50,515 nucleotides of DNA from Thermodesulfobacteriota bacterium. Its GTDB lineage: Bacteria > Desulfobacterota > Desulfobulbia > Desulfobulbales > SURF-16. Below the pieces are notes generated by a model, which worked only from the letters and a program-made list of their open reading frames with translations, was not told where the DNA came from and searched no databases. Below, one piece after another: positions 17,965 through 46,803 of the stretch. The position numbers were made by a program, and so were the translations under genes. The stretch covers positions 1-50,515 of the forward strand of contig JBDLIE010000019.1 of NCBI GenBank assembly GCA_039715015.1, read 5' to 3'. Position 1 is the stretch's first letter; every line of letters begins with the position of its first letter.

Positions 17965-18114
17965 ATTGGCCCCTGCAGCCCACTCTCTAAGTATGGACAA
18001 TGAACGTTTAGGTTTTAAGCATACTGACCCTGCTTAGAATTTAGCATAAGCCTTCAGGTACGGGAGAACGTAAACCCTGAGGGCTCCGATAAACCTTAGT
18101 AAGGAGGAAGAAGA

Positions 18115-18372
18115 ATGAGTGAAAACTCAGCAGCAGAATACTGGAAGGCAAACATCCGGCTTGTTATCGGTTGTCTTGTCGTCTGGTTTGTTATCTCATA
18201 CGGATGCGGCATCCTTTTTGCCGACGCCTTGAACGGCATCCGCCTGGGTGGCTATAAGCTTGGTTTCTGGTTTGCTCAGCAAGGTTCTATTTACACCTTT
18301 GTTGCCCTGATTTTTTTCTATGCATCCCGCATGAATAAGCTGGATAAGCAATTCAAAGTTGACGAAGACTAA
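18115..18372 (+). CDS. DUF4212 small membrane subunit of solute:sodium symporter (copy 2)
   Basis: YWKAN, GYKLGFWFAQQGS; strong RBS AAGGAGG. Confidence 0.9.
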   Translation: MSENSAAEYWKANIRLVIGCLVVWFVISYGCGILFADALNGIRLGGYKLGFWFAQQGSIYTFVALIFFYASRMNKLDKQFKVDED

Positions 18373-18382
18373 GGAGTAAATA

Positions 18383-20149: not shown

Positions 20150-20196
20150 TATTTATGCAATATAGGCTGGGGGCTGAAGCAATTTAGCCCCCTATA

Positions 20197-20235
20197 CAAA
20201 AACGCGCGGGGTTTCTAATCCCGCGCGTTTTTGTT
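20197..20235 (+). terminator. Rho-independent terminator (probably bidirectional) after the symporter genes
   Basis: AAAAACGCGCGGG-loop-CCCGCGCGTTTTT; a second hairpin GGGGGCT...AGCCCCC lies just upstream (20169-20192). Confidence 0.85.
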
Positions 20236-20260
20236 ATTATGGGAAAAATAAAAATAAAAA

Positions 20261-20344
20261 AAGTGAGAGAAGTTAAAGGAGTTATAGAATAATATCCTTC
20301 CTTCACTCCCCTTCTTTACCTCTTTTAACTTCTTTAACTCCTGT
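20261..20344. repeat. GAGTTAAAG / CTTTAACTC tandem-inverted repeat (second copy)
   Basis: The 16-mer CTTCTTTAACTCCTGT (20329-20344) is identical to 14508-14523; GAAGTTAAAGGAGTTA is on the left arm. Confidence 0.65.
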
Positions 20345-20354
20345 CCCCAAAAAA

Positions 20355-21731: not shown

Positions 21732-21757
21732 GAGATACCTCATATATCATCCCACCT

Positions 21758-23498: not shown

Positions 23499-24350
23499 TC
23501 AACGACCAAGAGCAATAAAGGTAAGACCGCAATAAACGAGAAGCCAACAGCAGGAGTAGTAGGCGCCCTGTTTTTGTTGGATATCATCAGAGCGGAGCAA
23601 GATAAGAGAAAAGACAAAGGTCAGAGGAAAGACAATACCTGCCCAAAAAGGCTGCACATAGCGAAGCATCTCCTGTAACCCCAGAAAAAACCACGGTCCT
23701 GGCCTGTGGAAAACGCCAAGAGAGTCGGGCTCCATGGGGGCCGGAAAGAGCAGGGAGAGAAGCATGGTAAAGGAGAGAAATAAAAAATGCTCTTTAAGGT
23801 GAGCCCGATATTTCCGGACATGATCCCAGCAGAGTATCCCCCAGACCACTCCCAGGCCAATAATATGATTTGCATAAACCCTTTTGAGGCCATCCTCAAG
23901 AACGGAAAAGAGCAAGGTGTTGAGAGCCGAGCCGACAAGGGGAACGGAAAGGCAGATATTCTCGGCAATAATGCCGGCATTCTCACCTGTTGCATCCCCC
24001 CGTAACACATAGCCGGTAAACAGGAGAAGTAAGGCCACAGGCAAACTAATCACCAGAGGTACCCATTTCCCCCAAGAAAGCTTCAGGTATGATTTATCGA
24101 TGAGGATAGCCAGGAAATGGGCTAAACAAAGAAGGAAGAAGAGTTGGCTGGAATAAAAATGGAGACTGCGCCAAAAATCACCAAAAGGCACCAGAGCATC
24201 CATGGCACTGGTTGAAAAAAAAGGCGTGGCAAAATCATACTGAAGAGCAATAACTACCCCTGAAACCACAGAGACATAAAGGGAAACGAGACAAAGTTCT
24301 CCCCATTTAACTTCGGTAATTCTTGTTAGAAAATTCTGGCTGCTACACAT
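23499..24350 (-). CDS. Cytochrome b/b6-like subunit of a Rieske/cytochrome b complex
   Basis: Heme-ligand His pairs RSLH-x13-H and ANH-x14-H; FTGYVL; PEWY-equivalent GPWFF. Confidence 0.85.
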   Translation of the reverse strand: MCSSQNFLTRITEVKWGELCLVSLYVSVVSGVVIALQYDFATPFFSTSAMDALVPFGDFWRSLHFYSSQLFFLLCLAHFLAILIDKSYLKLSWGKWVPLVISLPVALLLLFTGYVLRGDATGENAGIIAENICLSVPLVGSALNTLLFSVLEDGLKRVYANHIIGLGVVWGILCWDHVRKYRAHLKEHFLFLSFTMLLSLLFPAPMEPDSLGVFHRPGPWFFLGLQEMLRYVQPFWAGIVFPLTFVFSLILLRSDDIQQKQGAYYSCCWLLVYCGLTFIALGR

Positions 24351-24407
24351 TATAAGAAAAGATCGTTACACACTATTTTCATCCGGAAGAACCAAGAGAC
24401 TGAGGTC

Positions 24408-24830
24408 TTACACTGTCACTATGTACCCTTTACCTTCGCCAAGGGCCTCTACTTTAAATTGAGCCAAATCTTTCTGGGCTGGTCCGGCAAGACGTTTGCC
24501 ATGGGGAGAAAATTTTGACTGATGACAGGGACAGATTAACTGCTTGTCTTTTTCGCTAAAATTGAGGCGGCAGCCTAAGTGGGTACAAGTTCTTGAAATA
24601 GCCCACGCCTCCTTTTCCGCCACAAAAAGGGCAAACTCAGGGTCAAGGTGGACATCGCCGATAAGGAGTTTTTTTTCAACCTTGATAAAACGAGGTTTCG
24701 CAGGAACATTAAAGCGGACAAAACGTAGGGCAGGATAACAAAGGATGAATCCTGCAAACAGTTTAAGCCAACTCCATCCCGAAGAGAGAAAATGGCGCCG
24801 TTCTCCTGGCCCCTCAGCTTTACGACCCAT
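24408..24830 (-). CDS. Rieske [2Fe-2S] protein (start reassigned to MGRKA)
   Basis: CTHLGC and CPCHQSKF boxes; Tat-like ERRHFL plus TM anchor; ATG at 24830 overlaps the end of the Mo-enzyme gene. Confidence 0.9.
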   Translation of the reverse strand: MGRKAEGPGERRHFLSSGWSWLKLFAGFILCYPALRFVRFNVPAKPRFIKVEKKLLIGDVHLDPEFALFVAEKEAWAISRTCTHLGCRLNFSEKDKQLICPCHQSKFSPHGKRLAGPAQKDLAQFKVEALGEGKGYIVTV

Positions 24831-26997
24831 TACCACCACGAAGAAGGCGAACAAAGGTATCACGCAAGCCCCGTGTACCGGAAACCACATCAACCTTGCC
24901 GCGACTCATTACGGCAGAATCAGAAGCACCTCGCAAGTAGGCATCTTTCACAAAAGGAGACTTATTGCCGAAACCGTGACTCATATAACAACAATCCTCC
25001 CTAATGCCCGGGGTTATTTTCACCTTGACCAAACTCAGTGAGCGAAAGCCGTCTCTATTTTCGAGACGAACCTTATCGCCATCATCAAAACCCTGTTGTG
25101 CAGCAATGGACTCGCCAACCCACAGTTCGTTTTCCGGCACTTCGTGATTTAACCAGGTAAAACCTGCGGTTCGCGTTAACGAGTGAGCTGGGCAGCGGCC
25201 ATAAAGTAAACGCAGATAGCCCTCAGGGGCCTGGGCAGGCGGTTCATAGGAAGGAAGAGGCGAAAAACCGTTATGCAACAACCAGAATGAATGAAATTCA
25301 ATTTTGCCAGAAGGTGTGGGGAAATCTGCCTGCCGGGGCCCTGGCAATGGCCCGGCAAAAAGATCATCAACCCCCTCACCGTCAGAATCGAAGCTCATAG
25401 TTGCTTCTGGATCCTTTGCCTTATTTTTCAAAAGCAAGCCCCCAGCTTTTTTCATCAAATCAAGGGAACTTCCTTGAGAGGCCAGGGAATCATCGACATA
25501 ATTTTGCACCCTGTTTTGCGACAGCAATTCACCCTGCCCACACTCCTTAGCAAGATCTTGAACTATCTGATAAGGGTCACGACATTCATGGGAGGGATTA
25601 ACCACCGGGAAACGACAGCCAGTCATGATTTGATCACCTGTATCCCAGGTGTGCAGGTCATCCATCCGCTCAAGAAAAGAGCATTCCGGTAAAATAATAT
25701 CAGCATACAGGGTAGGCTCTGTGGGGAGCAGATCGCAGGCAAAAATAAATTCAGCGTTTTTAAGGGCAGTCATAGTTTTGTAGGGAGCTATTTCAGACTG
25801 GAGAGGATTTTGTCCCCAGATACCAGTGACCTTAATGTTGCCGCTGCCGACCTGATGAATGAGACGGGCAAAGGAGAGAGGTTTGCGCTGAGACTCAAAA
25901 TCAAACTTCTGGCCAGAATCTGGGAGCCGACTGCCCAATAATGCAGATAAAATGGCCTGCGCCCTCACCCGGTCTACATCGGCGCCATACCAGCTCAGAT
26001 GACTGCCGGGCATAATAACGGTGCGTGAACCAGCATGGGACATTGTTTCAACAGCGAGACGAATCATCTCCTCCGGTATATCAGTAATTTCAGAGGTCTT
26101 GGCCAGTGTAAAGGGCGCCGCAACCTCGCGCAACTCATCAAGACCGACAACCTGCTCGGCGAGAAAGGGATTAAACAACTCCTGGCTGAGGATATAATTT
26201 ATCCAGCCTAAGAGTAGAGCGGTATCGGTGCCCGGCCTGATCGCCAAATAGTGATCGGCTTTGGCGGCCATGGCAGAAAAGCGAGGGTCAATAACAATGA
26301 GTTCTGAACCCTTGCTCAAGAAATCACTCACCTGCTTGAGTTGAGAGACTTGGTTATTTTCACCGACGTGACACCCCATAAGAACAAGGCAGTCCGCATC
26401 GTTCATTGCAGGCAGATAGGATGGATCAGGCACACGACCAAACACGGTGCCATAGCCAAGCTCCCTGATTGCAGCAGAATGCATCTGGGACGAGTCATAA
26501 ATATGGGGACAGGAAAGCCCTTCATATAATTTCCGGATGAAAGAGGAGGAGCTGCTGCCACAAAGCAATGCCAATGATTCAGGACCAAAATTGGCATGGG
26601 CCTTCTTCATATGACTGCCGATTTCGGCAATGGCATCCTGCCAGGTAATTCGTTTCCAAGCCCCCTGCCCCCGAGGACCAACCCGTTTCATGGGATATTT
26701 AAGCCGGTCAGGGGCGCCTAAAAGCTGGACGGAAGCCATGCCGCGGGCACACAGAGCATGACCATGGATAGGGCTGTTAGGATTACCATTCAGACGGATA
26801 TGGCCATTCTTGCTCTTTAAAGCAAGCATGGGACAACTAGCCTTGCACATGCCGCAAATTGTCGGTATTTTTTCAACTTCCCGCCTTGGGTAGCTGCTGG
26901 GAGAGGCCTTGCTCAGAGAAGGATTGGTCTGATTGAAGACGAGAGATAAGGCTGAAAGAGACCCACCCTTTAATAAGGTACGGCGACTACACTTCAC
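24820..26997 (-). CDS. Tat-exported molybdopterin oxidoreductase catalytic subunit, PsrA/PhsA-like (DMSO reductase family)
   Basis: SRRTLLK Tat motif; CGMCKASC...C [4Fe-4S] motif; PDRLKYPMKR; IRPGTDTA; YADIILPE; TPSGKIEF; GTG start with GGAGG RBS. Confidence 0.85.
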   Translation of the reverse strand: MKCSRRTLLKGGSLSALSLVFNQTNPSLSKASPSSYPRREVEKIPTICGMCKASCPMLALKSKNGHIRLNGNPNSPIHGHALCARGMASVQLLGAPDRLKYPMKRVGPRGQGAWKRITWQDAIAEIGSHMKKAHANFGPESLALLCGSSSSSFIRKLYEGLSCPHIYDSSQMHSAAIRELGYGTVFGRVPDPSYLPAMNDADCLVLMGCHVGENNQVSQLKQVSDFLSKGSELIVIDPRFSAMAAKADHYLAIRPGTDTALLLGWINYILSQELFNPFLAEQVVGLDELREVAAPFTLAKTSEITDIPEEMIRLAVETMSHAGSRTVIMPGSHLSWYGADVDRVRAQAILSALLGSRLPDSGQKFDFESQRKPLSFARLIHQVGSGNIKVTGIWGQNPLQSEIAPYKTMTALKNAEFIFACDLLPTEPTLYADIILPECSFLERMDDLHTWDTGDQIMTGCRFPVVNPSHECRDPYQIVQDLAKECGQGELLSQNRVQNYVDDSLASQGSSLDLMKKAGGLLLKNKAKDPEATMSFDSDGEGVDDLFAGPLPGPRQADFPTPSGKIEFHSFWLLHNGFSPLPSYEPPAQAPEGYLRLLYGRCPAHSLTRTAGFTWLNHEVPENELWVGESIAAQQGFDDGDKVRLENRDGFRSLSLVKVKITPGIREDCCYMSHGFGNKSPFVKDAYLRGASDSAVMSRGKVDVVSGTRGLRDTFVRLLRGGNGS

Positions 26998-35700: not shown

Positions 35701-36271
35701 GCTCGGGGATATGGTTTTCCTGCATCTCAAAATAGAGGCGATCTCCAAAAATGCGTTTGAGGTCCAAGGCCTTCTGGCGGGCCAGATCCATATTATTTTC
35801 TTTGGCGATGAGATAGGGAATCTCGCCGTGGAGACAGGCGGTGAGGGCTATAAGACCATCGCTATGGGCCTCAAGGATCTCTTTATCTATACGGGGTTTA
35901 TAATGAAACCCCTCAAGCTGGGCGATGGAGGCCAGCTTGAGCAAATTCTTATAGCCGGCATGGTTCATGGCCAGAAGAACGATATGGAAAGCGGCCCGTC
36001 CGGCGCTCTTGGCCTTCTTTTTAAAACGGGAATCAGGGGCAATATAAAACTCGCAGCCGACAATGGGCTTAAGACCTTTAGCCTTGGCCTTGACATAGAA
36101 CTCCAACGCCCCAAACATGGCACCATGATCGGTAAGGGTAACCGTATCCATGCCGTACTCTTTACACTTGTCAAAAAGGTCCGCCAGGCGGATGGCGCCG
36201 TCCAGCAGACTATACTGACTATGGACATGGAGGTGGACGAAATTGGCCGGGGTGATCTGTTGTTCTTCCAT
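32723..36271 (-). CDS. dnaE: DNA polymerase III alpha subunit
   Basis: PHP domain FVHLHVHSQYSLLDG, GRGSGAGS, MPDFDVDF, KFDFLGL, FNKSH; 1182 aa with no intein-sized insertion. Confidence 0.98.
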   Translation of the reverse strand: MEEQQITPANFVHLHVHSQYSLLDGAIRLADLFDKCKEYGMDTVTLTDHGAMFGALEFYVKAKAKGLKPIVGCEFYIAPDSRFKKKAKSAGRAAFHIVLLAMNHAGYKNLLKLASIAQLEGFHYKPRIDKEILEAHSDGLIALTACLHGEIPYLIAKENNMDLARQKALDLKRIFGDRLYFEMQENHIPEQDVVNKGLMQLAKEIDVPLVATNDCHYLNREEAAAHELLLCIQTGKTLQDSNRFRFSTDELYFKSPDEMRQAFSYCPEALENTVKIAERCNLEIEFGNHYFPNFEVPEGESLDSMFDDLTRKGFKERFAIIRSMEDVSPELEETYRKRLEMELDVIKTMGFPGYFLIVADFINWAKDNDIPVGPGRGSGAGSLVAFSMGITDIDPIKYGLIFERFLNVERQSMPDFDVDFCQERRGEVIKYVHDKYGGDTNVCQIITYGSMKAKGVIRDVGRALGMTFSDVDRVAKLIPDDLGMTLKKALVDEPRLKDLYSHDDQVKQLLDIGMTLEGLQRHTSIHAAGVVISPEPMVEYLPVCKGPKGEVLTQYDMKFTEKTGLIKFDFLGLKTLTVIDRALKIIKKGLDIDLDIAKIPMDDPKTYDLLVRGDALGVFQLESSGMRQLLMKMKPEQFSDLIALVALYRPGPLESGMVDDFVNTKHGRMVASYPLPQLEPILEETYGVIVYQEQVMKIANVLADYSLGDADNLRRAMGKKIPEVMEEERTKFMGGAKKLAVDLKKAEYVFDLMAKFAGYGFNKSHSAAYALISYQTAYLKAHYPAEFMAALLSCDVNNTDKVVRYIQESQDHGIDVLPSDINESDKDFTVIKGDIRFGLAAVKNVGGAALDSIIEVRDEDGPYKSLGDFCTRVDSRKVNKRVIESLVKAGAFDTLGGRRSQIYAIIDQAMEQAQAAQRDRESGQISLFSAMASGTTEKATEIPLPDVPEWEDRQRLAFEKETVGFYITGHPLDNFKEELANATECAIEDLDKKGDGTAGRVGGLIKAMKNHKSKKGDPMAFLTLEDVTGDVEVVVFPTTYAQCSHLLNSDEPIVIQGQVQKEEEGGAKILADEVVSLATALERYTTGARILLHSEKISRQKLEELKTVIHKHHGSCPVSLVLHFEGRGEADVEIQKDLTIMPSHSFSSGVGKILGPAAISYQKKQAELMQGKKGNGWQKKAS

Positions 36272-36330
36272 TTCTTAGAAACCGGAGTGAGTTATAAAAT
36301 TTAACAAAGGAAAAGAGACATCTGTTTTGG

Positions 36331-36408
36331 GTAAGAGCCCACCCCTGTGGGCGATAATAAACTATGGTCAGGTAATCAAACGAATCGCCCACAGGGGTGG
36401 GCTCCTAG
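36331..36408. repeat. REPIN-like doublet of GTAG-family REP sequences
   Basis: Perfect 21-bp inverted repeat GAGCCCACCCCTGTGGGCGAT (36335-36355 / 36384-36404); each arm has an internal GCCCAC/GTGGGC hairpin; ends read GTAA and CTAG, one change each from GTAG. Confidence 0.85.
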
Positions 36409-37214
36409 ATCTCCACAAGGGCCTCGGGCATAAAACCAACCCTATCCATGAAGTAAAGGCCTGTTTCAATGCCTCCGGCATGATGGGCCTCCAGGGTAAC
36501 CAAGGGCTTAAGTTTCTCTTTGCTGAGAAAAGCGAAAAAATCTTCAAAATCGAAAAGACCTTCTCCAAGGCCCAGGTGGAGGTCAAGGTCGCCATTATTA
36601 TCATGGAGGTGCAGTTGCCCCAACCAAGGCGACATCTCAGGCAACCAGTCCTGCCAACGGCTCTTAGCAAAGGCCATAACATGACCAACATCCATACAAT
36701 AACGGGCGTAGGGAGAATCAAGCGCCGCCAAAACACGCCTCAAATGGTGGGGACCATGTTCATAGGTGTTTTCCAGCATCAGCGGCGTTTTCCGGCTTGA
36801 GGCAGTTTCAAGGAGCTGCTGCCAGGCCTCTAAGGAGTATTTGAACCACTCCTCCTCTTTATAGCCGTGCTTATTGGCCTCAAAACCTAGATGACAGACC
36901 ACTGAGGCAGGCCTGAAGATGTCGATAAGGTCAAAGGCCTTCTGGAGCTTATAACGGCTCAAGCGTCTAATATAAGGATCGAGACTGCCGGGGTAGAGTT
37001 CAAAAAAAGGAGCATGCAGGGTGCATCTGAGGCCAGCCTTGAGCAGGCGTTGGGCAACTAAAGAAAAATCTTCCTCACTCTCGTCATACAAAACCGTGCC
37101 TTCGAGACCGATCTCAGGTTGGAGTCCCTGGTCGATTATAGAGTCAATATCCTCTTTAAGACGCAAAAAAGGGACAGAGACAAAGCAACGTTTTTTGAGT
37201 TCGGAAAATGCCAT
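36405..37214 (-). CDS. Sugar phosphate isomerase/epimerase (xylose isomerase-like TIM barrel)
   Basis: LHAPF, LENT, CMDVGH, LHLHDNNG, TLEAH metal-binding motifs. Confidence 0.85.
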   Translation of the reverse strand: MAFSELKKRCFVSVPFLRLKEDIDSIIDQGLQPEIGLEGTVLYDESEEDFSLVAQRLLKAGLRCTLHAPFFELYPGSLDPYIRRLSRYKLQKAFDLIDIFRPASVVCHLGFEANKHGYKEEEWFKYSLEAWQQLLETASSRKTPLMLENTYEHGPHHLRRVLAALDSPYARYCMDVGHVMAFAKSRWQDWLPEMSPWLGQLHLHDNNGDLDLHLGLGEGLFDFEDFFAFLSKEKLKPLVTLEAHHAGGIETGLYFMDRVGFMPEALVEI

Positions 37215-37266
37215 ACAGTAAAATAATGGCTATGGGTTACTGAAAAAGGGCTGATGAGTGAAGCGT

Positions 37267-37437
37267 TTAATCTTCCAGGGGCTTTGCTTCATCGATCAAC
37301 ATGATGGGGATATCATCCTTGATTTCATAGACAAGCTTACAGCTCAGGCAGATCAAACCGTCGCCCTTGTCATTGAGAGAAACCGGCCCTTTACATTTAG
37401 GGCAGGCAAGAATATCGAGTAGTTCTTTTTTTATCAC
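37267..37437 (-). CDS. Trm112/YcaR-like small protein (GTG start)
   Basis: LLDILACPKCKG...C..C...YEIKDDIPIML; RBS AAGGAG upstream of GTG at 37437. Confidence 0.9.
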   Translation of the reverse strand: MIKKELLDILACPKCKGPVSLNDKGDGLICLSCKLVYEIKDDIPIMLIDEAKPLED

Positions 37438-37511
37438 AGGCTGTCTCCTTACCAAGAGAAAGAAGCGTCGATGTTGTAGTTAAAAAACAAATTTACCAGC
37501 TTGGAATTAAG

Positions 37512-37805
37512 CTAGCTATAAATAAAAACATAGGTGTCGTCGTTAATACTTATCCGGTAACGACCTCCATGATTTTTGCCATAAATTTCCCAGGCAGGGC
37601 CATCCGTAATTTCACATTTACAACAGGACGGTGAAAATTTCCCGGTGGTCTTATCAAACCAGGACATCAGCATGGGGTCTCCGCCATCACGGCTGGCAAT
37701 GGCATATGCCAGGTCTCGGGCGAGATCCCAGTCAAGATCCGCTCCCTCAACAGAAAGTGTGATTTTTTTCATACCTGGCCCGTTTATGGGAATAATTTCC
37801 GCCAT
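37512..37805 (-). CDS. AF1514-family (DUF5619-like) small protein
   Basis: Recalled family pattern: PMLMSWFD..G.FSP.CC....PAWEIYG.NHGG..ISIN; RBS GGAGGAG. Confidence 0.7.
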   Translation of the reverse strand: MAEIIPINGPGMKKITLSVEGADLDWDLARDLAYAIASRDGGDPMLMSWFDKTTGKFSPSCCKCEITDGPAWEIYGKNHGGRYRISINDDTYVFIYS

Positions 37806-37968
37806 GATCTCTCCTCCTCCTGAAAAAGGCAGCTAAAAAAATACCACTAACCATCTCACCCAGCGCTTGTCCATAAAAAATCTTCATTAATGAACACCTT
37901 AGAAATTTCAAGCCGTTTACCGATTCCGTTCGCAACACGTTAAAGAAGGCCACCTCAAAAGAAAATCC

Positions 37969-38077
37969 GATCACCATCGAACTTCAGCCAAACATTGCCC
38001 ATCTCCTGCACATGGTTGCATGAATGCCGGGCTCCTACAAATCGTGTCACAAAAATGGCTGAAGATGAGTGGTAATC
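37969..38077. repeat. Short MITE/REP-like element with imperfect terminal inverted repeats
   Basis: Left GATCACCATCGAACTTCAGCCA versus reverse complement of the right end GATTACCACTCATCTTCAGCCA; internal GTAGGAGCCC on the minus strand (38029-38038); partial copy at 15365. Confidence 0.65.
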
Positions 38078-38080
38078 AGA

Positions 38081-38119
38081 ATAGAAAATGGAAGTAACGC
38101 ATAAGCGCCACTTCCATTT
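38081..38119 (-). terminator. Rho-independent terminator downstream of the rhodanese selenoprotein gene
   Basis: Minus strand reads AAATGGAAGTGGCGC-TTAT-GCGTTACTTCCATTT followed by TCTATT; two G-U pairs form only on this strand. Confidence 0.7.
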
Positions 38120-38223
38120 CAAGATTAAATATTATGAAGAGAAGCAAGAATCTGCCAGACAGAAAAGGAGGTTGATCAAAAGAACATCTTGATCATTTGA
38201 GCCTGGCAGATTCTTAACATTTA

Positions 38224-39549
38224 TTACTCATAGACATCACATTCAGGACCATCACACTCGACATTGGCAACAAGATAACTGCTCTCGAAACCGGCGTTGC
38301 GCAGCTCGGTGCTGGCCATCTCAGCCCTGGCCCCAGTGGTACAATGGACCACAATTTCTTTACCCTTAGGAAGAGAACCAATCTTGCCTTGGAGATCATC
38401 CAGGGGAATGTGACGGGCATTAGCAAATTTGCCTTCTGCAGCCTCATCCACAGTACGAACATCAAGAATGAGTTTATCTTTCGATCCTTTGGAAACTTTC
38501 ATAAAATCAGCGATACTGATCTCATTCTTGCCAAGCTTACGTTTCCAGTTAATCTCATCTGGGGTAGCACCGGTCTCAATGGGCTTACCGGCCTTTTTCC
38601 AGGCCGTAAAACTAACACCGGAAATGGAGCCTTTTTTCTTGCCCCAGCCTTTAACGATTTTATAGGCCTTTTGAGGGGCATTTCCGTTGCCATAGACGAC
38701 AATGGGCGCAACCTTGCTGGATGGGAAATCATCCTCGGCATACTCAAGATCTGCCAGAGGAATATTATAGGCCCGTGGAATATGGCCTGATTCGTATTCT
38801 TTCTTTGAGCGCAGATCAACAAGAACGATATTGCCCTTGGTGACAAAATTCTCACTTGCTGTCACATAGTTACCCGCCTTTTTCCAGCCGGGGACACCTG
38901 CAAGCATAACTTTAACATTGGTATATCCTAATTTGACCGCCTGACCGGCGTTCTTTGTTGACATACCTCAGGTGGGGCCTCCGCAGTAAAAGACGAGCTG
39001 GATATCCTTATTTTTAGGAAGAAGAGAAGCGCCCTTCTTCTTCATGGCAGGAACAGGAATGCTGATGGAGCCAGGAATGGTTCCTTCATGGAAACGCTTG
39101 CCGGGACGGGCATCAACAAGAACGTATTTCTTGCCTGATGCCATCAAAGCAGCAAGCTCACCGGGCTTCATCTCAGAGGTGCCCTTAGGCAGCTTAGCCA
39201 GTTTCGGCTTGATAACCGTAGCGACACGGTCCTTTCCTTTGCCTTTGAATTCAATAATCGCGGCATGGCCCTTGACAGCGTGCTTTACGCCTTTGGTGCT
39301 GTCATCGAACTTGACCATCATGGTCTTGGCCTTCTTTCCCTTTCCTACAGAAATAGAAATGGTTTTGGCCTTATTGGACTTGCCGAGAATTTTTCCCTTG
39401 AGAACGTTCTGCTTCTTCTTGGCTTCGGCCTTTGCAGCGGGAGCCGCTTGGTTTCCGGCCTGGACCGGCTCGTGATTAACGCAACCGGCGACCAATATTG
39501 CTGCACCACAGGCTAGTGGTAGCAGGCGTTTAAGAATTTTCTGATTCAT
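38224..39549 (-). CDS. Selenocysteine-containing triple-rhodanese lipoprotein (441 aa; Sec194 from in-frame TGA at 38968-38970)
   Basis: The two track ORFs are in one frame separated by TGA GGT. Read-through restores a full rhodanese domain (VDARP..GTIPGSISIP..LVFYCGGPT-U-GMS..AVKLGYTNVKVMLAGVPGWKKAG). U aligns with the second Cys of FYCKGIRC in 43591..44316. A SECIS-like hairpin follows. Lipobox VAGC at Cys23. Confidence 0.9.
38920..38967 (-). promoter_or_regulatory. Bacterial SECIS-like element
   Basis: Directly after UGA: lower stem GGUAUGUC/GAUAUACC (8 bp, one G-U); upper stem CGCC/GGCG closing a GGUCA loop that starts with G and begins 21 nt after the UGA. Confidence 0.8.
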
Positions 39550-39622
39550 GGCAACTCCTTAAAAAAAGTGAAGAGATTAACAGCTTATGATAGCGCCTCT
39601 TTTGCTTAACAACTTTTAATGG

Positions 39623-39638
39623 AGCAATCTATATGCCA
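39623..39638 (-). promoter_or_regulatory. Sigma54 (-24/-12) promoter of the rhodanese selenoprotein gene
   Basis: Minus strand TGGCATATAGATTGCT matches TGGCAY-N5-TTGCW with GG-N10-GC spacing; 73 nt upstream of the ATG, which has RBS AAGGAG. Confidence 0.85.
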
Positions 39639-39661
39639 CCAGACGCCTTTTTCTCTTGTCT

Positions 39662-39674
39662 TATCAATTACTTG
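39662..39674 (+). promoter_or_regulatory. IHF binding site
   Basis: TATCAATTACTTG is an exact match to WATCAANNNNTTR and lies between the sigma54 promoter and the putative enhancers. Confidence 0.65.
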
Positions 39675-39751
39675 CTAAAAACTGCGAACTTTCAGGAAAT
39701 TATGCACATAAATCTTGAGGGCATCTCTCGCAAACCAGCCCGCCAATCCCC

Positions 39752-39849
39752 TGCAAAGTTATTTGACATCAATAACAGCTTCGAAGTAACATGCTGCACA
39801 CACAACATTTTTACCGACAAGGGCATTTGTCCATGCAAATTTTTTTGCA
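39752..39849. promoter_or_regulatory. Candidate upstream activator (enhancer) sites
   Basis: Dyads TGCAAAgttaTTTGaCA (39752-39768), GACAAgggcatTTGTC (39816-39831) and TGCAAAttttTTTGCA (39834-39849). Confidence 0.45.
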
Positions 39850-39864
39850 CCTTTTTTCACATCT

Positions 39865-42168
39865 ATGAACCTACGATATCTCATCTTTCTGACCATCACT
39901 GCCCTTGGCCTGCTTCCCTTGGCAGTGCTTCTCATTACGAGTTTTCCCCAAGCCATGGTGCAGTTGGATGACGCGGCCCGTCAGAAAACGGTTGCCCTGA
40001 CCCAGAACCGCTATACAAAGCTTAATGCCAAGGTTAAATGCCTCAAAAAGTCTATTAACAGGTTGGCAGCAGTACCAGTCAGTGAGGACATCATTGTTCA
40101 TGCCGATGAAGATCATCAAAATCGTATGGAACTCCTCATCGGCGACTGGTTTGCGGAAGATCTCCAGATTGATGACGTTCATTTTATTGATATTGTCGGC
40201 AATGAAACTTTCCGGATGACAAGGGGCCCGCAAGAGCTTGTAAAAATTGGCGCCAAGAATCTCCGAACCCGTGAACAGGATGCCTCCTTTCTCCATGGCC
40301 TTCAACTCTCTCCACAGGAGGTATTTGTCGGCATTGCCAACCAGACTGAGGGCAGCCTGGGAACTGAAGAACAATATGTTCTTTATATGGTAACACCCGT
40401 GGGAAGAGGTATTGATGAAATCATGGGCCTGGCTGTTATCCAGGTTGATCTCAAAACTTTTTTGCAGGATTTCAGTGACTCTCTGTGGCTTCTGACCAAC
40501 CGCCAGGTACTTTACGCACCGGCCAACATCCCGCCCTACACCCCGCCAACGGCTATTGCTGAAGATTTCAGTCAACCAGTTGATATCTCCATCTCTGACT
40601 CTACCTCCGGCAATCAAGTGGCGTGGCTCCCCCTCTCTTTTAACCCGGACCACCTCCCCCTGCTGTGGATTGCCAGCCCTATAGATCAATCAGCCACCCT
40701 GGCCTGGAAAACTGCCATCACCCGGAATATCTTTCTTATTGTCACCATCACCGGCCTGATGGTCTTCGGCATTGCTCATTTCATTGCCGGCCGCCTGGCT
40801 ACTATTAAAAACGAGATTGTTAATGGTCTCGACCGCATTTTGAATCATGATGAGCTCGTCCAGTTTTCCTGGAAAGGCCCGCAGGAATTAAAAAATATGG
40901 CTCAAGATCTCACCAGTATGGCCGACCATTATCACGAAATTCAAACGGCCCGTAGCCAGGCCGAAACCGCTCTGCGGGAAAGCGAGGAAAATTTCAGGAA
41001 CCTTACCACCTCAGCCCACGATGCCATCATTATGATGGATCATCATGGCGACATCTCTTTCTGGAACAAGGCAGCAGAGACCTTTTTCGGCTACCAAAGC
41101 GCTGAGGCCGTGGGCCAGCCTATCCACAGCCTCATCAGCCCACGGCGCCCGGAAACAGGGGAAGGTGTTTCTCCTTTAGGCGTGGCCAATGAGGGCTCCC
41201 CTGTCCATGAGATTATTGCCCTTACCGCCACCAAAAAAGACGGCACAGAGATCCAGATGGAACTCTCCCTCTCAGCAGCTTATATCAGCGACCGCTGGCA
41301 TGCTCTGTGGATTGTTCGTGATATCACCGAACGTATCCGTTCAGAGGCTAAAAACAGGGAGCAGCAGAAGCAACTCATCCAGGCCGACAAGATGATCTCC
41401 CTTGGCCTCCTCGTATCAGGTGTGGCCCATGAGATCAATAACCCTAACTCCATTGTCCTGCTCAACACCCCGCTCCTGGCCCGTTCCTGGAATTCTATCC
41501 TGCCCATACTTGACGAGTTCCATGAAGAAAATGGCGAATTTCTTGTGGCCGGTCTTGATTACTCTGATATGCGCGCCCAGATCCCAAAGATATGTGATGA
41601 GATTGACGACAGCAGCCAACGCATCAAACAGATTGTTATGGACCTCAAGGACTATGCCCGCCAGGATAGTACCCCCCATTTTGACCAGATCGACCTCAAC
41701 TCCGTTGTAGAGGCTGCCAGCCGCCTTACCTTAAATAAAATTAAAAATGCCACTAATCATTTCAGCACCAAACTTGAAAAAATACCCGCCGTTTTCGGCA
41801 ACCGCCAACGCCTGGAGCAGGTAGTCATTAACCTCATCCAAAACAGCTGCGAGGCCCTGAGCGGTCCTTCAAAGGGCATCACCATCACCTCCTTTTTTGA
41901 CAAAAAGGAAAACCTGGTCAAACTCTCTGTCATTGACGAAGGGAGCGGCATCGACCCCCAGTCCATCACCAAAGTAACTGATCCTTTTTACACCTCAAAA
42001 AGGACCATGGGCGGCACAGGCCTTGGGCTTTCCGTGTCAGCGGGTATTATCAAGGAGCATGACGCAACTATTAAGTTTCAAAGTAATTTCGGCCAAGGTA
42101 CCACGGTAATTCTTGCCTTTAAACCAGCCGACAATTCAGCCCCGATTAAGGGTAGACACCATGACTAA
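39865..42168 (+). CDS. Sensor histidine kinase with extracytoplasmic (Cache-like) domain and PAS domain
   Basis: Two TM helices flank a large periplasmic region; PAS (HDAIIMMD..WNKAAE..RDITE); H-box AHEINNP; N-box NLIQNS; GTGLGL. Confidence 0.9.
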   Translation: MNLRYLIFLTITALGLLPLAVLLITSFPQAMVQLDDAARQKTVALTQNRYTKLNAKVKCLKKSINRLAAVPVSEDIIVHADEDHQNRMELLIGDWFAEDLQIDDVHFIDIVGNETFRMTRGPQELVKIGAKNLRTREQDASFLHGLQLSPQEVFVGIANQTEGSLGTEEQYVLYMVTPVGRGIDEIMGLAVIQVDLKTFLQDFSDSLWLLTNRQVLYAPANIPPYTPPTAIAEDFSQPVDISISDSTSGNQVAWLPLSFNPDHLPLLWIASPIDQSATLAWKTAITRNIFLIVTITGLMVFGIAHFIAGRLATIKNEIVNGLDRILNHDELVQFSWKGPQELKNMAQDLTSMADHYHEIQTARSQAETALRESEENFRNLTTSAHDAIIMMDHHGDISFWNKAAETFFGYQSAEAVGQPIHSLISPRRPETGEGVSPLGVANEGSPVHEIIALTATKKDGTEIQMELSLSAAYISDRWHALWIVRDITERIRSEAKNREQQKQLIQADKMISLGLLVSGVAHEINNPNSIVLLNTPLLARSWNSILPILDEFHEENGEFLVAGLDYSDMRAQIPKICDEIDDSSQRIKQIVMDLKDYARQDSTPHFDQIDLNSVVEAASRLTLNKIKNATNHFSTKLEKIPAVFGNRQRLEQVVINLIQNSCEALSGPSKGITITSFFDKKENLVKLSVIDEGSGIDPQSITKVTDPFYTSKRTMGGTGLGLSVSAGIIKEHDATIKFQSNFGQGTTVILAFKPADNSAPIKGRHHD

Positions 42169-43594
42169 AAACCAATACCCTCTCCTTCCCGTTCTTCTTG
42201 TTGATGACGAGGAGGCATGGCTGCACAGCTTCAGCCTTACCCTACGTTCTGCAGGAATCAATAACATTATTACCTGTCAGGACAGTCGGGAGGTAATGGA
42301 TATCCTCGCCAAACAAACCATTTCGGTGATGGTGCTTGATCTCACCATGCCGTATATCAATGGCGCTGAAATTCTTATCAAGGCAGTTGAGGAATTCCCC
42401 CATATCCCGGTGATTATCATCAGCGGCCTTGATCAGGTTGAAACAGCAGTAAACTGCATCAAGCAAGGCGCCTTTGATTATTTCACTAAAGTTTCAGAAG
42501 AGAACAGACTTGTCTCCGGAGTGGACAGGGCCATTGAGGTGGGCAAATTACGCCGGGAAAATTTATCGTTAAAAGAACATTTCCTTGAAGACCGCCTTGA
42601 TTATCCCGACGCCTTTGCACACATCATTACCCACAACAAGAAAATGCGGGCTCTGTTTCAGTATATGGAGGCCATTGCCACCAGCTGCGAACCTGTTCTC
42701 ATCACCGGCGAAACCGGGGTGGGCAAGGAGCTTTTTGCCAAGGCCCTCCACAAGCTCTGCCACGGCGACGCCCCTTTTGTGGTGGCTAATGCCGCAGGTC
42801 TTGATGACACCATGTTCGCCGACACCCTTTTTGGCCACCGTAAAGGAGCCTTCACCGGTGCAGATAGCGCCCGGGACGGTCTGATCAAAAAGGCATCCGG
42901 GGGAACCCTCTTTCTTGACGAGATCGGCGATCTCTCCCAATCATCTCAGGTCAAATTGCTCCGCCTGATTCAGGAAAGAGAATATTTCCAGCTAGGCAGC
43001 GATCTCGCCAGAAAGACCGATGCCCGGATGATCTTTGCCACCCACCGCGACCTTGACACCCTCCAAAAAGAGGGGGATTTTCGGACAGATCTCTTTTTTC
43101 GTCTCCGAGCCCATCATATCCACATCCCTCCTTTGCGTGAACGCCTTGACGATATCGCCCTGCTCTTTGACTTTTTCCTCACTAAGGGAGCTAAGAAACT
43201 ATCGAAGAAAAAGCCGGCCTATCCTAAGGAACTCACCCTGCTCCTCGCCACCTATAATTATCCGGGCAATATTAGGGAACTTGACCATATTATTTTCGAT
43301 GCCTTGAGTCACCATAAGGAAAAGATGCTTTCCATGGAGAGCTTTAAAAAGTATTTTCAGAGTCAAACTACTCCGACTGAAAACAGCATCAACAATACGT
43401 TACTTAGCAGTGAAGATAGCACCCCCTTTCGTGTCCTTGGGCAACTGCCCACCCTTAAAGAATCAAGCAACCTGCTAATCCAGGAAGCCTTGCATCGTTC
43501 CGGCGGCAATCAGGCTATTGCCGCTGATATGCTGGGTGTTACCAGGCAGGCCCTCAACTGGCGCCTTAAAAAGTCGGAAAAGGAGACCCCATGA
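42161..43594 (+). CDS. Sigma54-dependent (NtrC-family) response regulator (start reassigned to MTKNQ)
   Basis: REC LLVDDE and LDLTMP; GETGVGKE; intact GAFTGA; PGNIREL; Fis-type HTH GNQAIAADMLGVTRQAL; ATG overlaps the kinase end. Confidence 0.93.
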   Translation: MTKNQYPLLPVLLVDDEEAWLHSFSLTLRSAGINNIITCQDSREVMDILAKQTISVMVLDLTMPYINGAEILIKAVEEFPHIPVIIISGLDQVETAVNCIKQGAFDYFTKVSEENRLVSGVDRAIEVGKLRRENLSLKEHFLEDRLDYPDAFAHIITHNKKMRALFQYMEAIATSCEPVLITGETGVGKELFAKALHKLCHGDAPFVVANAAGLDDTMFADTLFGHRKGAFTGADSARDGLIKKASGGTLFLDEIGDLSQSSQVKLLRLIQEREYFQLGSDLARKTDARMIFATHRDLDTLQKEGDFRTDLFFRLRAHHIHIPPLRERLDDIALLFDFFLTKGAKKLSKKKPAYPKELTLLLATYNYPGNIRELDHIIFDALSHHKEKMLSMESFKKYFQSQTTPTENSINNTLLSSEDSTPFRVLGQLPTLKESSNLLIQEALHRSGGNQAIAADMLGVTRQALNWRLKKSEKETP

Positions 43595-44316
43595 AGTCCA
43601 GATTGTCCTTATGCTTCACCGTGACAGCCGTCCTCCTCTGTGTTTTGGTTTCTTTTGCCCAGGCGGAACGCTTTGAAACCATCAGCACAGACGAGTTGCT
43701 TGCCTTAAGAAAAAGCAATGCCCCTTTCCTGCTTATCAACGCCCTCAGCCCCATCGAATACAATCAAGAGGCAATAAGTGGCTCCGTGAATATCCCGGCA
43801 AGCCATATGCGGACCGACCACCCACTCCTTCCCCAGGACAAATCCACCTTGCTGGTCTTCTACTGTAAGGGCATACGCTGCACCAAGAGCCGCCGGGCAG
43901 CCCGTAAAGCCATGGAGTTCGGTTATCAGCATGTAAAAATCTACACAGATGGACTACCGGGCTGGAAACGCCGTAACCTGCAGATAACTCATTCCACATC
44001 CTATCCAGACATCATCCCTCAAGTCCTTGAGCCTCTCACTGTCTATCAAAAAATGGAGTCTGCTATCCTCCTCGATATCCGTGGTGAGGAAGTCAGCCAG
44101 GTGGGAGAAATTAATAAAGCGCTGAAAATCCCCCTCGATGATCTTGATCGCTACTATCAGAAATTGCCCCGGGACAAGAGCATTATCATTATTGATCATG
44201 CTGAAAAGCAGTCCCCTATTTGCTCCCGTTTTCTATATAAAATGGGCTACCGTGATCTTGCCATTTTAAAAGGTGGCATGATTAACTGGGTTCGAGCCGG
44301 TCTACCCATAGAGTAA
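43591..44316 (+). CDS. Secreted tandem rhodanese-domain protein (CxxxxC loop)
   Basis: Signal peptide ending AQA; domain 1 ISGSVNIP..LVFYCKGIRCTKS..GLPGW; domain 2 has Asp at the catalytic position (IIIIDHAEKQS); ATGA overlap with the regulator. Confidence 0.88.
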   Translation: MKSRLSLCFTVTAVLLCVLVSFAQAERFETISTDELLALRKSNAPFLLINALSPIEYNQEAISGSVNIPASHMRTDHPLLPQDKSTLLVFYCKGIRCTKSRRAARKAMEFGYQHVKIYTDGLPGWKRRNLQITHSTSYPDIIPQVLEPLTVYQKMESAILLDIRGEEVSQVGEINKALKIPLDDLDRYYQKLPRDKSIIIIDHAEKQSPICSRFLYKMGYRDLAILKGGMINWVRAGLPIE

Positions 44317-45777
44317 ATGCCCCCACACGTGACAAATACCGACATAAAAAATGAACCTAGCCTGCCTGACCACCTGGCTGCCATGTTCATGGATGCCGCC
44401 GCACAGGGTCCCCCCCCTCCCCTGGATCTTATTTCCCTGCTTACCAAAATGGCCCTTGGCGCAGACCTTGATCTTGCCAAGGAGGCAACCCAAAGCCTCT
44501 ACAATAAAATTATCCTGCCCCTCTGTGATGATTTCACCAGCTCCAGCGTCGAGGTGGCTAATAAAGTTCTTATCAACATGATTTTGGCTTTTTGTCGCAC
44601 CTCCTATGGTAAGGAGACGCAACAGATCCTTCACGACTTACAGCTCACAGACCAACAAAGCTTCCTGTCCCGTTATCGGGACCTTGCCGAGCCTCGCACC
44701 TTGAGTGTAGAAGAGAGAAAAAAGGTGAAAAAGATTTTTATTCTCTCCAGAATTACTTTAGGAGCGGATATTGCCATCACCTCGCTTATTATTTCCCACT
44801 GCAAGGAGGCCTTACCTGAGGCGGATATCTATCTTATTGGCCCAGACCACCTTCGCCATCTTTTTTATGATGAGCAATTGCACCATCTTCATTTTTCTTA
44901 TGATCGTGATGGGACACTCCTGGAGAAAATGACGGCCTGGCCTCGGCTCTTTAAGATTATTGCCAAAGAGAGCAAGCACCTTGCCGGCCATGAGATTCTC
45001 ATTTTTGATCCTGACACCAGGCTAAGCCAGCTAGGACTGCTGCCCCTCACCTCTACTTCATCTACGTATTATCTCTGTAGCCGCCAAGACCAGGAAAAGA
45101 ACGCAAGCCTGCCGGAGATCACCTGTGCCTGGCTCCAAAAGATCTTCCCGGGCAACAACTCATCATTCCCCCAATGTCTCATTAACCCTGATCTTCTGGC
45201 CCAATGCCGATCCCTGTTAAGCAAGTGCGGTTCAAAGACCTTGCGGATATTCATTAATCTTGGCGTGGGCAATGATGAAAAAAAACGTCTATCTGATCCT
45301 TTTGAAGAAGAACTTCTTGCAAGCCTTCTCCAAACCAGAGACACTCTGATCATTCTTGACTCCGGCAAAGGGGCGCTTGAAGAAAAAATGGCCAAGAGAT
45401 TAATGGCAAAAATGGCCAAAAAGGGCTATAACACGGCCCAGTTTAGCGAAGAACAGCTCGCCAGGACCGAGATCTCCTTTCTTCATGGTATGGTGCGCTT
45501 TACAGGCAAGATTGACTCGGTGGCAGGCCTTGTCAGCAACTGCGATCTTTTTATCGGTTATGACTCATGTGGCCAGCACCTGGCAACTTCCACCGAGACG
45601 CCATCGATTATCTGTTTTATTGGCGCACCCAACAAAAGATTTTTAGGGCGCTGGCAACCAAGTAACCATCATGGTAAAACCACAACCTTAATTGTCGACC
45701 AGAACCCCTTGAGTGGCCAGAAACGTTCTGAACTCATCGACAAAATTGTAATTACGGCAGCCCGTTATCGATCCTGA
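44317..45777 (+). CDS. GT9-like (heptosyltransferase-type) glycosyltransferase with N-terminal extension
   Basis: KIFILSRITLGADIAITS...PEADIYLIG and CDLFIGYDSCGQHLA..TPSI resemble GT9 motifs; adjacent to the heptose kinase gene. Confidence 0.65.
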   Translation: MPPHVTNTDIKNEPSLPDHLAAMFMDAAAQGPPPPLDLISLLTKMALGADLDLAKEATQSLYNKIILPLCDDFTSSSVEVANKVLINMILAFCRTSYGKETQQILHDLQLTDQQSFLSRYRDLAEPRTLSVEERKKVKKIFILSRITLGADIAITSLIISHCKEALPEADIYLIGPDHLRHLFYDEQLHHLHFSYDRDGTLLEKMTAWPRLFKIIAKESKHLAGHEILIFDPDTRLSQLGLLPLTSTSSTYYLCSRQDQEKNASLPEITCAWLQKIFPGNNSSFPQCLINPDLLAQCRSLLSKCGSKTLRIFINLGVGNDEKKRLSDPFEEELLASLLQTRDTLIILDSGKGALEEKMAKRLMAKMAKKGYNTAQFSEEQLARTEISFLHGMVRFTGKIDSVAGLVSNCDLFIGYDSCGQHLATSTETPSIICFIGAPNKRFLGRWQPSNHHGKTTTLIVDQNPLSGQKRSELIDKIVITAARYRS

Positions 45778-45810
45778 CAACGTATCCTGCTTAAAAAATT
45801 CTGAAAAACC

Positions 45811-46803
45811 ATGCAACATCTCGTATCCATCGATCACCACATTTTAAAAGAGGCCCTTCACCGCTTCAAAGAGGCCAACATTCTTGTCATTGGCGATATT
45901 ATTGTTGACCATTTTATCTATGGTTCAGTGAGTCGAATTTCACCTGAGGCACCTGTTCCTGTGGTAAATGTCCGAAATGAGGATCTTCTTCTCGGCGGTT
46001 CTGCAAACGTCCTGCACAACCTGCATGCCCTGGGTGGCAAAGGGGCAATCTGCGGGGTGATTGGCCGTGATGTTATGGGAGATCAGCTCCTCAGTCTGCT
46101 CGACAAAATTGACTCCCCCACCTCCGGTGTCATTCATTGCGAGGATCGTCCCACCACCAAAAAGACCAGGGTCATTGCCCAGAACCAGCAGGTTGTCCGC
46201 TTTGACAGGGAAATAACCGGTGATTTGGCGGATGAGGTGATTGCCAGGATTTGCTCTTTTCTCGATGAAAATATCAGCTCTTTCCAAGCTGTTGTGGTTT
46301 CCGACTACGACAAGGGTGTTATCTGCCAAGCCATTATCGACCACCTCCGCACACTGCGCCAGAGCCATCCCATCCCCATGGTGGTTGACCCTAAACCAGG
46401 ACACCCTGATTTTTTTAAAGGGGCTACCCTGATCACCCCCAATAACCTTGAGGCGGAATTGATGTCAGGTATCAAAATTACTGATGGCGACTCCTTGCTC
46501 ACCGCAGCAAAAAAACTCAAAGAGGAACTGGAAAGTGAAGCGGTCCTTATCACCCGTGGAGAAGCAGGTATGGCCTTACTCTCCGGCGACAAGCCTCTTT
46601 TCACCATCCCCACGGTTGCCAAAGAGGTCTATGATGTCACCGGTGCCGGCGACACAGTCATTGCCACACTGGCCCTTGGCCTGGCAGTGGGTCTCAGCCA
46701 CGCCGAGGCAGCTGCCATCGCCAATTATGCAGCGGGTATTGTCGTGGGCAAGGTAGGAACAGCAACGGCAAGCCCAGAAGAACTTCAGGAGGTAATGGCA
46801 TGA
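45811..46803 (+). CDS. rfaE1: D-glycero-beta-D-manno-heptose-7-phosphate kinase (RfaE domain I)
   Basis: RISPEAPVPVV, SDYDKG, DPK, TPNNLE, VYDVTGAGDT. Confidence 0.93.
   Translation: MQHLVSIDHHILKEALHRFKEANILVIGDIIVDHFIYGSVSRISPEAPVPVVNVRNEDLLLGGSANVLHNLHALGGKGAICGVIGRDVMGDQLLSLLDKIDSPTSGVIHCEDRPTTKKTRVIAQNQQVVRFDREITGDLADEVIARICSFLDENISSFQAVVVSDYDKGVICQAIIDHLRTLRQSHPIPMVVDPKPGHPDFFKGATLITPNNLEAELMSGIKITDGDSLLTAAKKLKEELESEAVLITRGEAGMALLSGDKPLFTIPTVAKEVYDVTGAGDTVIATLALGLAVGLSHAEAAAIANYAAGIVVGKVGTATASPEELQEVMA

Follow-up and report, generated by a model that had tools for sequence, protein, structure and literature searches.

Locus and question

What does a membrane-bound sensor kinase with a sigma-54 activator control when the gene facing it encodes an exported rhodanese that contains selenocysteine (Sec)? 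The question is raised by a locus in a stretch of 50,515 nucleotides (nt) from a Thermodesulfobacteriota bacterium of the order Desulfobulbales (assembly GCA_039715015.1, contig JBDLIE010000019.1), the whole of which is referred to here as the window. Our analysis points to a likely answer: a two-component regulon in which a dCache/PAS kinase, through an NtrC-type activator, would drive the sigma-54 promoter of a periplasmic Sec triple-rhodanese lipoprotein. The features on which this answer draws are the following (lengths of products in amino acids, aa):

38224-39549, minus strand: Sec triple-rhodanese lipoprotein gene, 441 aa, a single frame with TGA read as Sec (U)
39623-39638, minus strand: sigma-54 -24/-12 element TGGCATATAGATTGCT (TGGCAT-N5-TTGCT), 89 nt before the Sec rhodanese ATG
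39740-39850 (approximate), minus strand: candidate activator-binding sites, GGTGCAAAAAAATTTGCA 213 nt and TGTCAAATAACTTTGCAGG 119 nt before the -24 element
39865-42168, plus strand: sensor histidine kinase gene, 767 aa
42161-43594, plus strand: NtrC-type sigma-54 activator/response regulator gene, with REC, AAA+ and HTH_8 domains
43591-44316, plus strand: small secreted two-domain rhodanese gene, 241 aa

An initial annotation had read the last three genes as a translationally coupled operon of kinase, sigma-54 activator and secreted CxxxxC rhodanese, divergent from an exported Sec rhodanese with a sigma-54 element, and all of these are indeed in the sequence as described. The operon occupies 39865-44316 (+) and faces away from the Sec gene at 38224-39549 (-). 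The activator ATG at 42161 lies in an 8-nt overlap with the kinase stop (ATGACTAA), and the small rhodanese ATG overlaps the activator stop (ATGA) and is preceded by AAGGAG.

Association of the kinase and activator with the triple rhodanese

We compared the 80 best related triple-rhodanese loci from one-genome-per-species contigs, counting a kinase or activator when it lay within 7 kb, with 20 sampled kinase loci from nine families as coded. A sigma-54 element was called strong when it matched at least 10 of 11 consensus bases within 900 nt upstream. A kinase and/or activator orthologue was found near the triple rhodanese in 25/80 loci, and a triple rhodanese in 11/20 of the sampled kinase loci; five of the 20 had neither a triple rhodanese nor a DUF5619 gene (see below), including the short contigs L047 and L042 and the weak paralogue L048. 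The linked genes were divergent at some loci (L040, L041, L046, L049, L053, L054) and co-directional at others (L044, L045, L052, L056, L057). A strong sigma-54 element preceded the rhodanese in 17 of the 25 loci with the kinase or activator, versus 5 of the 55 without. At the co-directional loci the element is found about 560 nt upstream, before a small CheY-like receiver open reading frame (ORF) that itself precedes the rhodanese. Moreover, in one genus the kinase, activator and DUF5619 genes are hundreds of kilobases from the rhodanese (G086), and a GG-N10-GC element is found 92-111 nt before the rhodanese in 4/4 genomes. As the link survives both rearrangement and unlinking, plain synteny would not explain it.

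The same picture was obtained from whole genomes. A six-frame search with the kinase sensor (residues 1-345) found relatives in 88 of the 301 genomes of the order; a word-indexed protein search with the sensor returned 16 proteins, fewer than the true spread of the family. By a hand tally over the same 301 genomes, a triple rhodanese (E<=1e-60) was present in 75/88 sensor-positive versus 109/213 sensor-negative genomes. Among the 13 sensor-positive genomes that have no triple rhodanese, ten hold only weak, longer kinase paralogues and three are 77-88% complete.

The association of kinase, activator, promoter and rhodanese is conserved across families of the order. Adjacency, co-occurring sigma-54 elements and the TTTGCACC box at fixed spacing (see below), a box found at unlinked loci too, together lend comparative support to the earlier proposal that the pair controls the Sec rhodanese, and indicate that it very probably switches on the triple-rhodanese gene from the sigma-54 promoter. 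What recurs across relatives is this association and not the four-gene cassette of the initial annotation, which is kept in all 8 genomes of the window's genus. As a conserved unit it fails on the small rhodanese, which is found beside the triple rhodanese in 10/80 loci and with the kinase in 3/20 sampled loci (L040-L042); in all, it keeps company with the kinase in three genera of one family only.

The CheY-like receiver genes that stand between the sigma-54 element and the triple rhodanese at co-directional loci encode a single domain and were seen in other families (L044:12450-12940 (+), L045:12565-13010 (+) and L034:391-780 (+)).

Promoter and candidate operator

By count alone the sigma-54 element is at chance level, with 4 matches in the window against 4.05 expected. 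It becomes meaningful through its position before the Sec gene and the conservation of that position in 8/8 genomes of the genus; an rpoN gene was identified in the window's genome (215.2 bits). Upstream of the element, an alignment of six intergenic regions of the genus revealed two conserved blocks, GGTGCAAAAAAATTTGCA and TGTCAAATAAnTTTGCAGG. A related 8-mer, TTTGCACC/GGTGCAAA, is enriched in other genera: of 50 distinct upstream regions that have a sigma-54-like element, 30 contain it, versus 4 of 51 that lack such an element, against a background of 0.059 per kb. It mostly lies 73-86 nt before the -24 element. Across the window's genome, both boxes were found upstream of just one of 73 strong sigma-54-like sites, that of the Sec rhodanese. 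These TTTGCA-type boxes are candidates for the operator of the activator.

The order of genes could instead be simply inherited, with the kinase and activator controlling other genes, for example the GT9-like and rfaE-like envelope genes, and another activator serving the element before the rhodanese. Indeed, synteny of dnaE, a TIM-barrel gene and the genes for Trm112, DUF5619, rhodanese, GT9-like and rfaE-like proteins is shared by many genera, regardless of whether the kinase is present; the GT9-like ORF directly adjoins the small rhodanese gene; and a further sigma-54 activator is encoded in the window (20355-21731). We nevertheless consider this explanation very improbable, as the association persists whether the genes are divergent, co-directional or unlinked, the sigma-54 element goes along with the kinase and activator, and the same upstream box is found at fixed spacing in many genera.

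Selenocysteine decoding

The Sec reading of the rhodanese depends on two further features:

38968-38970, minus strand: in-frame TGA, Sec194, with Cys at the aligned position in homologues
38918-38967, minus strand: hairpin resembling a Sec insertion sequence (SECIS), directly 3' of the TGA, fold -18.5 kcal/mol, z = -3.0

In 11 full-length public homologues, the residue aligned with U194 is an invariant Cys, inside an invariant C-G-G-x-x-C-x-x-S motif. Of the 80 related loci, 63 have TGA at codon 194 and the other 17 encode Cys there, and all 79 further distinct Sec sequences begin with TGA. In the hairpin, the outer stem begins 2 nt past the UGA, and the apical stem CGCC/GGCG carries the loop GGUCA; at least 4/5 apical pairs form in 80/80 distinct TGA forms versus 6/19 Cys forms, and the loop is GGUCU or GGUCA in 67 of the 80 TGA forms. 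Paired synonymous changes are found in the apical stem (GCA…UGC, CUGCC…GGCAG). An Rfam scan of 36000-46000 (E<=1) found no SECIS family and gave chance microRNA-type matches only. The genome encodes the Sec machinery: selA (546.8 bits), selB (373.2 bits, over the cut-off) and tRNA-SeC (on contig C84). Since Cys homologues align at this position, the hairpin tracks the TGA forms, and selA, selB and tRNA-SeC are all present, decoding of the TGA as Sec is well supported by comparative sequence evidence, and the reading of the initial annotation holds in this respect. The protein also has the signal of an exported protein, as had been proposed: the lipobox LVAGC and U194 lie within one 441-aa frame.

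Public gene calls split the protein at this codon in most genomes, into pieces of 193 and 246 aa (here 38968-39549 and 38224-38964, both -). Many of the 246-aa fragments (56% query cover) stand as separate database entries named 'rhodanese'.

Selenoproteins of this broad kind have been reported before. A 2026 review catalogues rhodanese-like selenoproteins in five forms, the first with the motif UxxS (PMC13188914), and 'rhodanese-related sulfurtransferase' selenoproteins were reported to be abundant in deltaproteobacterial symbionts (PMC1976440). By motif, form 1 fits the UGMS of rhodanese domain 1 here. The window's protein is a lipoprotein in which two more rhodanese domains follow the one with Sec, and the part of the catalogue available to us says nothing on regulation.

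The Sec triple-rhodanese lipoprotein

Residues 1-23 form a lipoprotein signal with the lipobox LVAGC and are followed by a beta-rich domain at about 48-115 and by three stretches matching Pfam rhodanese (PF00581, 3.2e-39). The loop of domain 1 is FYCGGPT-U194-GMS (C189-GGPT-U194-GMS), that of domain 2 has no Cys, and domain 3 has HC403TTGARA; a further CxxxxC, C432-DGPE-C437, is found in the C-terminal tail. Matches to the selenoprotein TsoB (UxxxxU, NF045694), in its rhodanese part, were obtained for both CxxxxC/U domains far below the cut-off, that of domain 1 at 8.1e-16. The structure model has a predicted local distance difference test (pLDDT) score of 82.5, and its whole-model fold matches are the multi-rhodanese sulfurtransferases 1yt8, YnjE and EanB, with low TM-scores.

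By family resemblance, the protein is plausibly a periplasmic sulfane-sulfur transferase. The YnjE protein of E. coli is periplasmic and has three rhodanese domains. Its structures (PDB 2wlr, 3ipo) match the fold of the Sec protein at E ~1e-9, and domain 3 matches by sequence both Sud of Wolinella succinogenes (PDB 1qxn, E 3.6e-4), likewise a periplasmic rhodanese sulfur carrier, and the rhodanese domains of persulfide reductases. Sud and YnjE lack the Sec loop and the extra N-terminal domain, and their TM-scores against the Sec protein are about 0.22; the domain arrangement of the Sec protein therefore differs from theirs. We know of no dedicated sigma-54 two-component system that regulates Sud or YnjE.

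The same architecture has been described for three secreted lipoproteins of Desulfurivibrio dismutans, RS06465, RS12800 and RS05165, which like the window's protein have three PF00581 domains and a lipoprotein signal, and whose proposed function is to receive sulfur for Psr outside the membrane (PMC12142623). They come from the same bacterial family and their proposed role, sulfur uptake outside the membrane, is the one suggested here; the likeness is one of architecture. RS06465 is part of a Psr operon, unlike the window's Sec gene, which lies outside any such operon. The terms 'sigma-54' and 'histidine kinase' do not occur in the text of PMC12142623. In Desulfolithobacter dissulfuricans, a 437-aa rhodanese protein was detected only under thiosulfate disproportionation, with 2-3 spectral counts (PMC9751629). 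SseA-type rhodaneses were found to have no marker value for disproportionation in a survey that, in its available part, did not address the triple-rhodanese family (PMC12998232).

The window's own genome has a Cys-type paralogue of the triple rhodanese (C10:10465-11796 (-), 443 aa, 34% identity). Its placement in a Psr operon was ruled out: the neighbours are ABC/LolA-like, epimerase and SLAC1-like genes, with no reductase near.

A module that handles selenium or another chalcogen oxyanion, the kinase sensing selenite- or tellurite-type compounds and the lipoprotein binding or reducing them, would also fit the presence of Sec in the triple rhodanese. In Geobacter sulfurreducens, selenite uptake has been linked to ExtH, a rhodanese-like lipoprotein (according to a reference title in PMC13510729), and a cytochrome b encoded 13 kb away matches ExtP of a 'selenite/tellurite reduction operon', although below the threshold (77.7 bits, cut-off 290). 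Yet the kinase/activator and the sigma-54 element are also found with Cys forms of the triple rhodanese (for example L040, L041, L044, L071, L084 and L086), so the circuit is not tied to the use of Sec; no ExtH-named family was among the NCBIfam matches of the triple rhodanese (E<=0.001); and the organisms are sulfur-cycling Desulfobulbales. We regard this alternative as improbable.

Kinase and activator

The kinase consists of a first transmembrane helix, a periplasmic domain of 255 residues (about residues 30-283), a second transmembrane helix, a coiled linker, and PAS, HisKA and HATPase_c domains. In the model (pLDDT 79.3), the outer domain has a long N-terminal helix and two PAS-like modules between the two membrane helices. 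The Foldseek matches of the sensor are 2p7j, 3lie, 3lid, TlpA/TlpC, DctB and Tlp3 (probability 1.00, E 1.6e-9 to 1e-5, TM up to 0.72 on the target), and several of these structures were solved with small ligands bound. The periplasmic sensor is thus predicted to be a dCache fold, and no Pfam dCache model matched it.

The activator matches REC (PF00072, 1.8e-21), the sigma-54 AAA+ domain (PF00158, 1.2e-54) and HTH_8 (PF02954, 1.5e-07). The best NCBIfam matches were AtoS for the kinase (183.9 bits, cut-off 646) and AtoC for the activator (315.7 bits, cut-off 714). Assignment to AtoS/AtoC, ZraS/ZraR or another named NtrC-type pair was rejected, the scores being far under the equivalog cut-offs. 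The domain order is the same as in AtoS/AtoC and ZraS/ZraR; the window's kinase differs from AtoS and ZraS in its dCache sensor, which no Pfam model recognises.

Several known regulators (FisR, CstR, SqrR and BigR) control sulfur-handling genes in response to persulfides or polysulfides, and FisR among them is a sigma-54 activator. These proteins sense in the cytoplasm via their own cysteines, in contrast to the window's circuit, with its transmembrane kinase and periplasmic domain.

Proposed circuit

In the circuit that we favour, a periplasmic sulfur (or selenium) compound would be the signal. The membrane kinase, with its periplasmic dCache sensor and cytoplasmic PAS domain, would phosphorylate the NtrC-type activator, and the activator would bind the TTTGCA-type boxes and open the sigma-54 promoter before the triple-rhodanese gene. 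The lipoprotein, with its CGGPTU loop, may then take up sulfane sulfur (from polysulfide, thiosulfate or S0) and pass it on outside the cytoplasmic membrane.

Several points weigh against this reading. Kin genomes are not independent, and the counts given above overstate the support. Eight of the 25 linked loci have no strong sigma-54 element (some have weaker, 9/11 ones), and five unlinked loci do have one. No kinase or activator was found nearby in 55 of the 80 triple-rhodanese loci, so the triple rhodanese does not depend on the circuit; the kinase is missing, for example, from the loci recorded under Desulfocapsa, Desulfofustis, Desulfogranum, Desulfosediminicola and Desulfobulbus species. 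Of the public sequencing runs listed, the one that contains this stretch is a DNA run, perhaps the source of the window itself, and none is an RNA run. The first candidate box extends over sequence immediately ahead of the kinase gene, and it could be conserved within the genus for expression of the kinase instead. The periplasmic domain of the kinase has no conserved Cys. Finally, the sulfur role of the Sec rhodanese is plausible from family resemblance, and a selenium or tellurium role for the protein, improbable as we hold it to be, would count on the same side.

The small secreted rhodanese

The initial annotation had proposed the small rhodanese as an accessory receptor for the kinase. 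The signal peptide of this protein ends in AQA-E, and its CxxxxC loop reads FYCKGIRC. In 14 sequences its loops are invariant, FYCKGxxCxKS in domain 1 and a Cys-free DHAxxQ in domain 2. In other genera, an orthologue (42-48% identity) is the leading gene of an operon that also encodes a methyl-accepting chemoreceptor of about 500 aa, with a helical periplasmic domain, and a MauE-like membrane protein; this operon adjoins the triple rhodanese and was found at L029 (6133-9014 (-)), L031, L064, L067, L068, L069, L080 and L081, including two loci that also have the kinase (L068, L080).

We predicted the complex of kinase residues 30-285 with small rhodanese residues 27-241. The median score was 0.44, against 0.00 for the best of three controls, which the tool grades as 'weak support'; the runs shared 72% or more of their contacts, and the pLDDT of the partner was at least 87. 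In the calibration of this score, the mark was reached by 116/157 solved complexes and by 2/215 mismatched pairs; at scores of 0.60 or less, 18/157 solved complexes reach it, along with both of the passing mismatches. According to the tool, a pass at a score like 0.44 is more often wrong than right unless the pairing is likely beforehand.

A true co-receptor would carry sulfane sulfur (or selenium) on its CxxxxC motif and dock on the dCache domain of the kinase, and elsewhere on the chemoreceptor. Periplasmic accessory proteins that work with a kinase are known from LuxP/LuxQ and TorT/TorS, which offer a model for a secreted protein handing a signal to a kinase; the accessory there is a periplasmic binding protein and not a rhodanese. 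The best case for such a role is the company that the small rhodanese keeps, namely transducers of two kinds: its gene shows translational coupling to those of the kinase and activator here, stands in the same position in two further genera (L040-L042), and heads the chemoreceptor operon in at least eight distinct loci of other genera. The invariance of both loops, including the one without Cys, and the predicted complex are consistent with it. However, 17 of the 20 sampled kinase loci have no small rhodanese nearby, so the kinase senses without it; three chemoreceptors taken from related loci showed no similarity to the kinase sensor (residues 1-350) in BLASTP; and, as the small rhodanese adjoins the triple rhodanese in every locus, a role as partner of the latter explains the linkage equally well. 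The co-receptor part of the initial annotation thus keeps its docking prediction and its company of two transducers and loses the constant link to the kinase, and we think it unlikely. The protein is most likely a lineage-restricted accessory in a thiol/persulfide relay with the triple rhodanese or with a transducer.

The broader idea, a secreted rhodanese that serves as a loadable co-receptor for two classes of transducer, the dCache kinase here and the methyl-accepting chemoreceptor in sister genera, is in our view quite unlikely. If true, gene regulation and swimming would both be steered by the sulfane-sulfur (or selenium) load of a periplasmic carrier, an input of a kind new to two-component and chemotaxis systems.

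The DUF5619 protein

Downstream of the Sec gene lies a further candidate member of the module, which the initial annotation had missed:

37512-37805, minus strand: DUF5619 gene, 97 aa

The protein (Pfam 5.4e-26) has no signal peptide and has one invariant Cys (C64); a distant solved relative, 3c0f (E 2e-4), is of unknown function. Its gene is present in 9/20 kinase loci, four of them with the order kinase-activator-DUF5619 and no rhodanese nearby. It is a commoner companion of the kinase and activator than the small rhodanese, and in other families adjoins them or shares an operon with them. This cytoplasmic protein is probably a further member of the kinase-rhodanese module. Our literature search found no paper mentioning DUF5619.

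The molybdenum enzyme 11 kb away

The initial annotation had also suggested that the Sec rhodanese may feed a PsrA-like module 11 kb away, a suggestion for which we found no support. The best NCBIfam match of the molybdenum (Mo) catalytic subunit is PhsA (303.9 bits, cut-off 694). The enzyme was ruled out as PsrABC because its partners are a Rieske protein and a cytochrome b (the one with the ExtP match noted above) in place of the PsrB 4Fe-4S protein and PsrC/NrfD. The genome-wide scan for boxes and sigma-54 elements found no regulatory motif shared between the Sec rhodanese promoter and the Mo enzyme region. The order of the genes (23499-26997 (-)), a PhsA-like molybdopterin subunit followed by the Rieske protein and cytochrome b, gives an enzyme of the Psr/Phs type unusual partners.

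Relation to earlier work

No description of a kinase/activator-triple rhodanese circuit was found in the literature searched, and the regulatory circuit appears to be undescribed there, with parts of known kinds. The claim of an undescribed system can be kept for this circuit and not for its components, Sec rhodaneses (PMC13188914, PMC1976440) and secreted triple-rhodanese lipoproteins (PMC12142623) being already in print. In the literature on chemoreceptors and polysulfide, the rhodanese passage in the available part of PMC3543383 concerns a cytoplasmic enzyme.

A kinase and activator wired to a periplasmic sulfur carrier would give a testable entry to what Desulfobulbales cells sense in the periplasm, and the promoter with its candidate operator is a genetic handle that could report the signal. 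To our knowledge, there is no agreed pathway of extracellular sulfur uptake and activation, and no known regulator of it, in sulfur-disproportionating or sulfide-oxidising Desulfobulbales, including the relatives of cable bacteria. In addition, the natural Sec/Cys pair offers a way to ask what selenium adds to rhodanese chemistry.

Other features of the window

One further gene stands at the end of the operon:

44317-45777, plus strand: GT9-like ORF, 486 aa

Its first base directly follows the small rhodanese stop (TAAATG), and because it abuts this stop the operon may extend to 44317-45777. The ORF may be co-transcribed with the small rhodanese; that it is part of the kinase-rhodanese module is doubtful. 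Together with an rfaE-like (PfkB) kinase gene (44317-46803 (+) for the two), it is a neighbour of the triple rhodanese in many genera, irrespective of the presence of the kinase and activator.

A 13-bp inverted repeat (AAGAATCTGCCAG … CTGGCAGATTCTT, loop of about 40 nt; 38146-38213 (-)) directly follows the stop of the Sec rhodanese gene, within the 418 nt that separate this gene from the DUF5619 gene. In a terminator scan, terminator-like sites were no more numerous than in shuffled sequences, and none after the Sec gene was convincing.

Finally, a second sigma-54 system was found at 16189-23425 (+), with two sodium:solute symporters, a REC/AAA+/HTH_8 activator (20355-21731) and a PilS-like kinase (21758-23425) with six helices and a PAS domain; the 3' end of this kinase gene contains a perfect TGGCAC-N5-TTGC (23389-23403).

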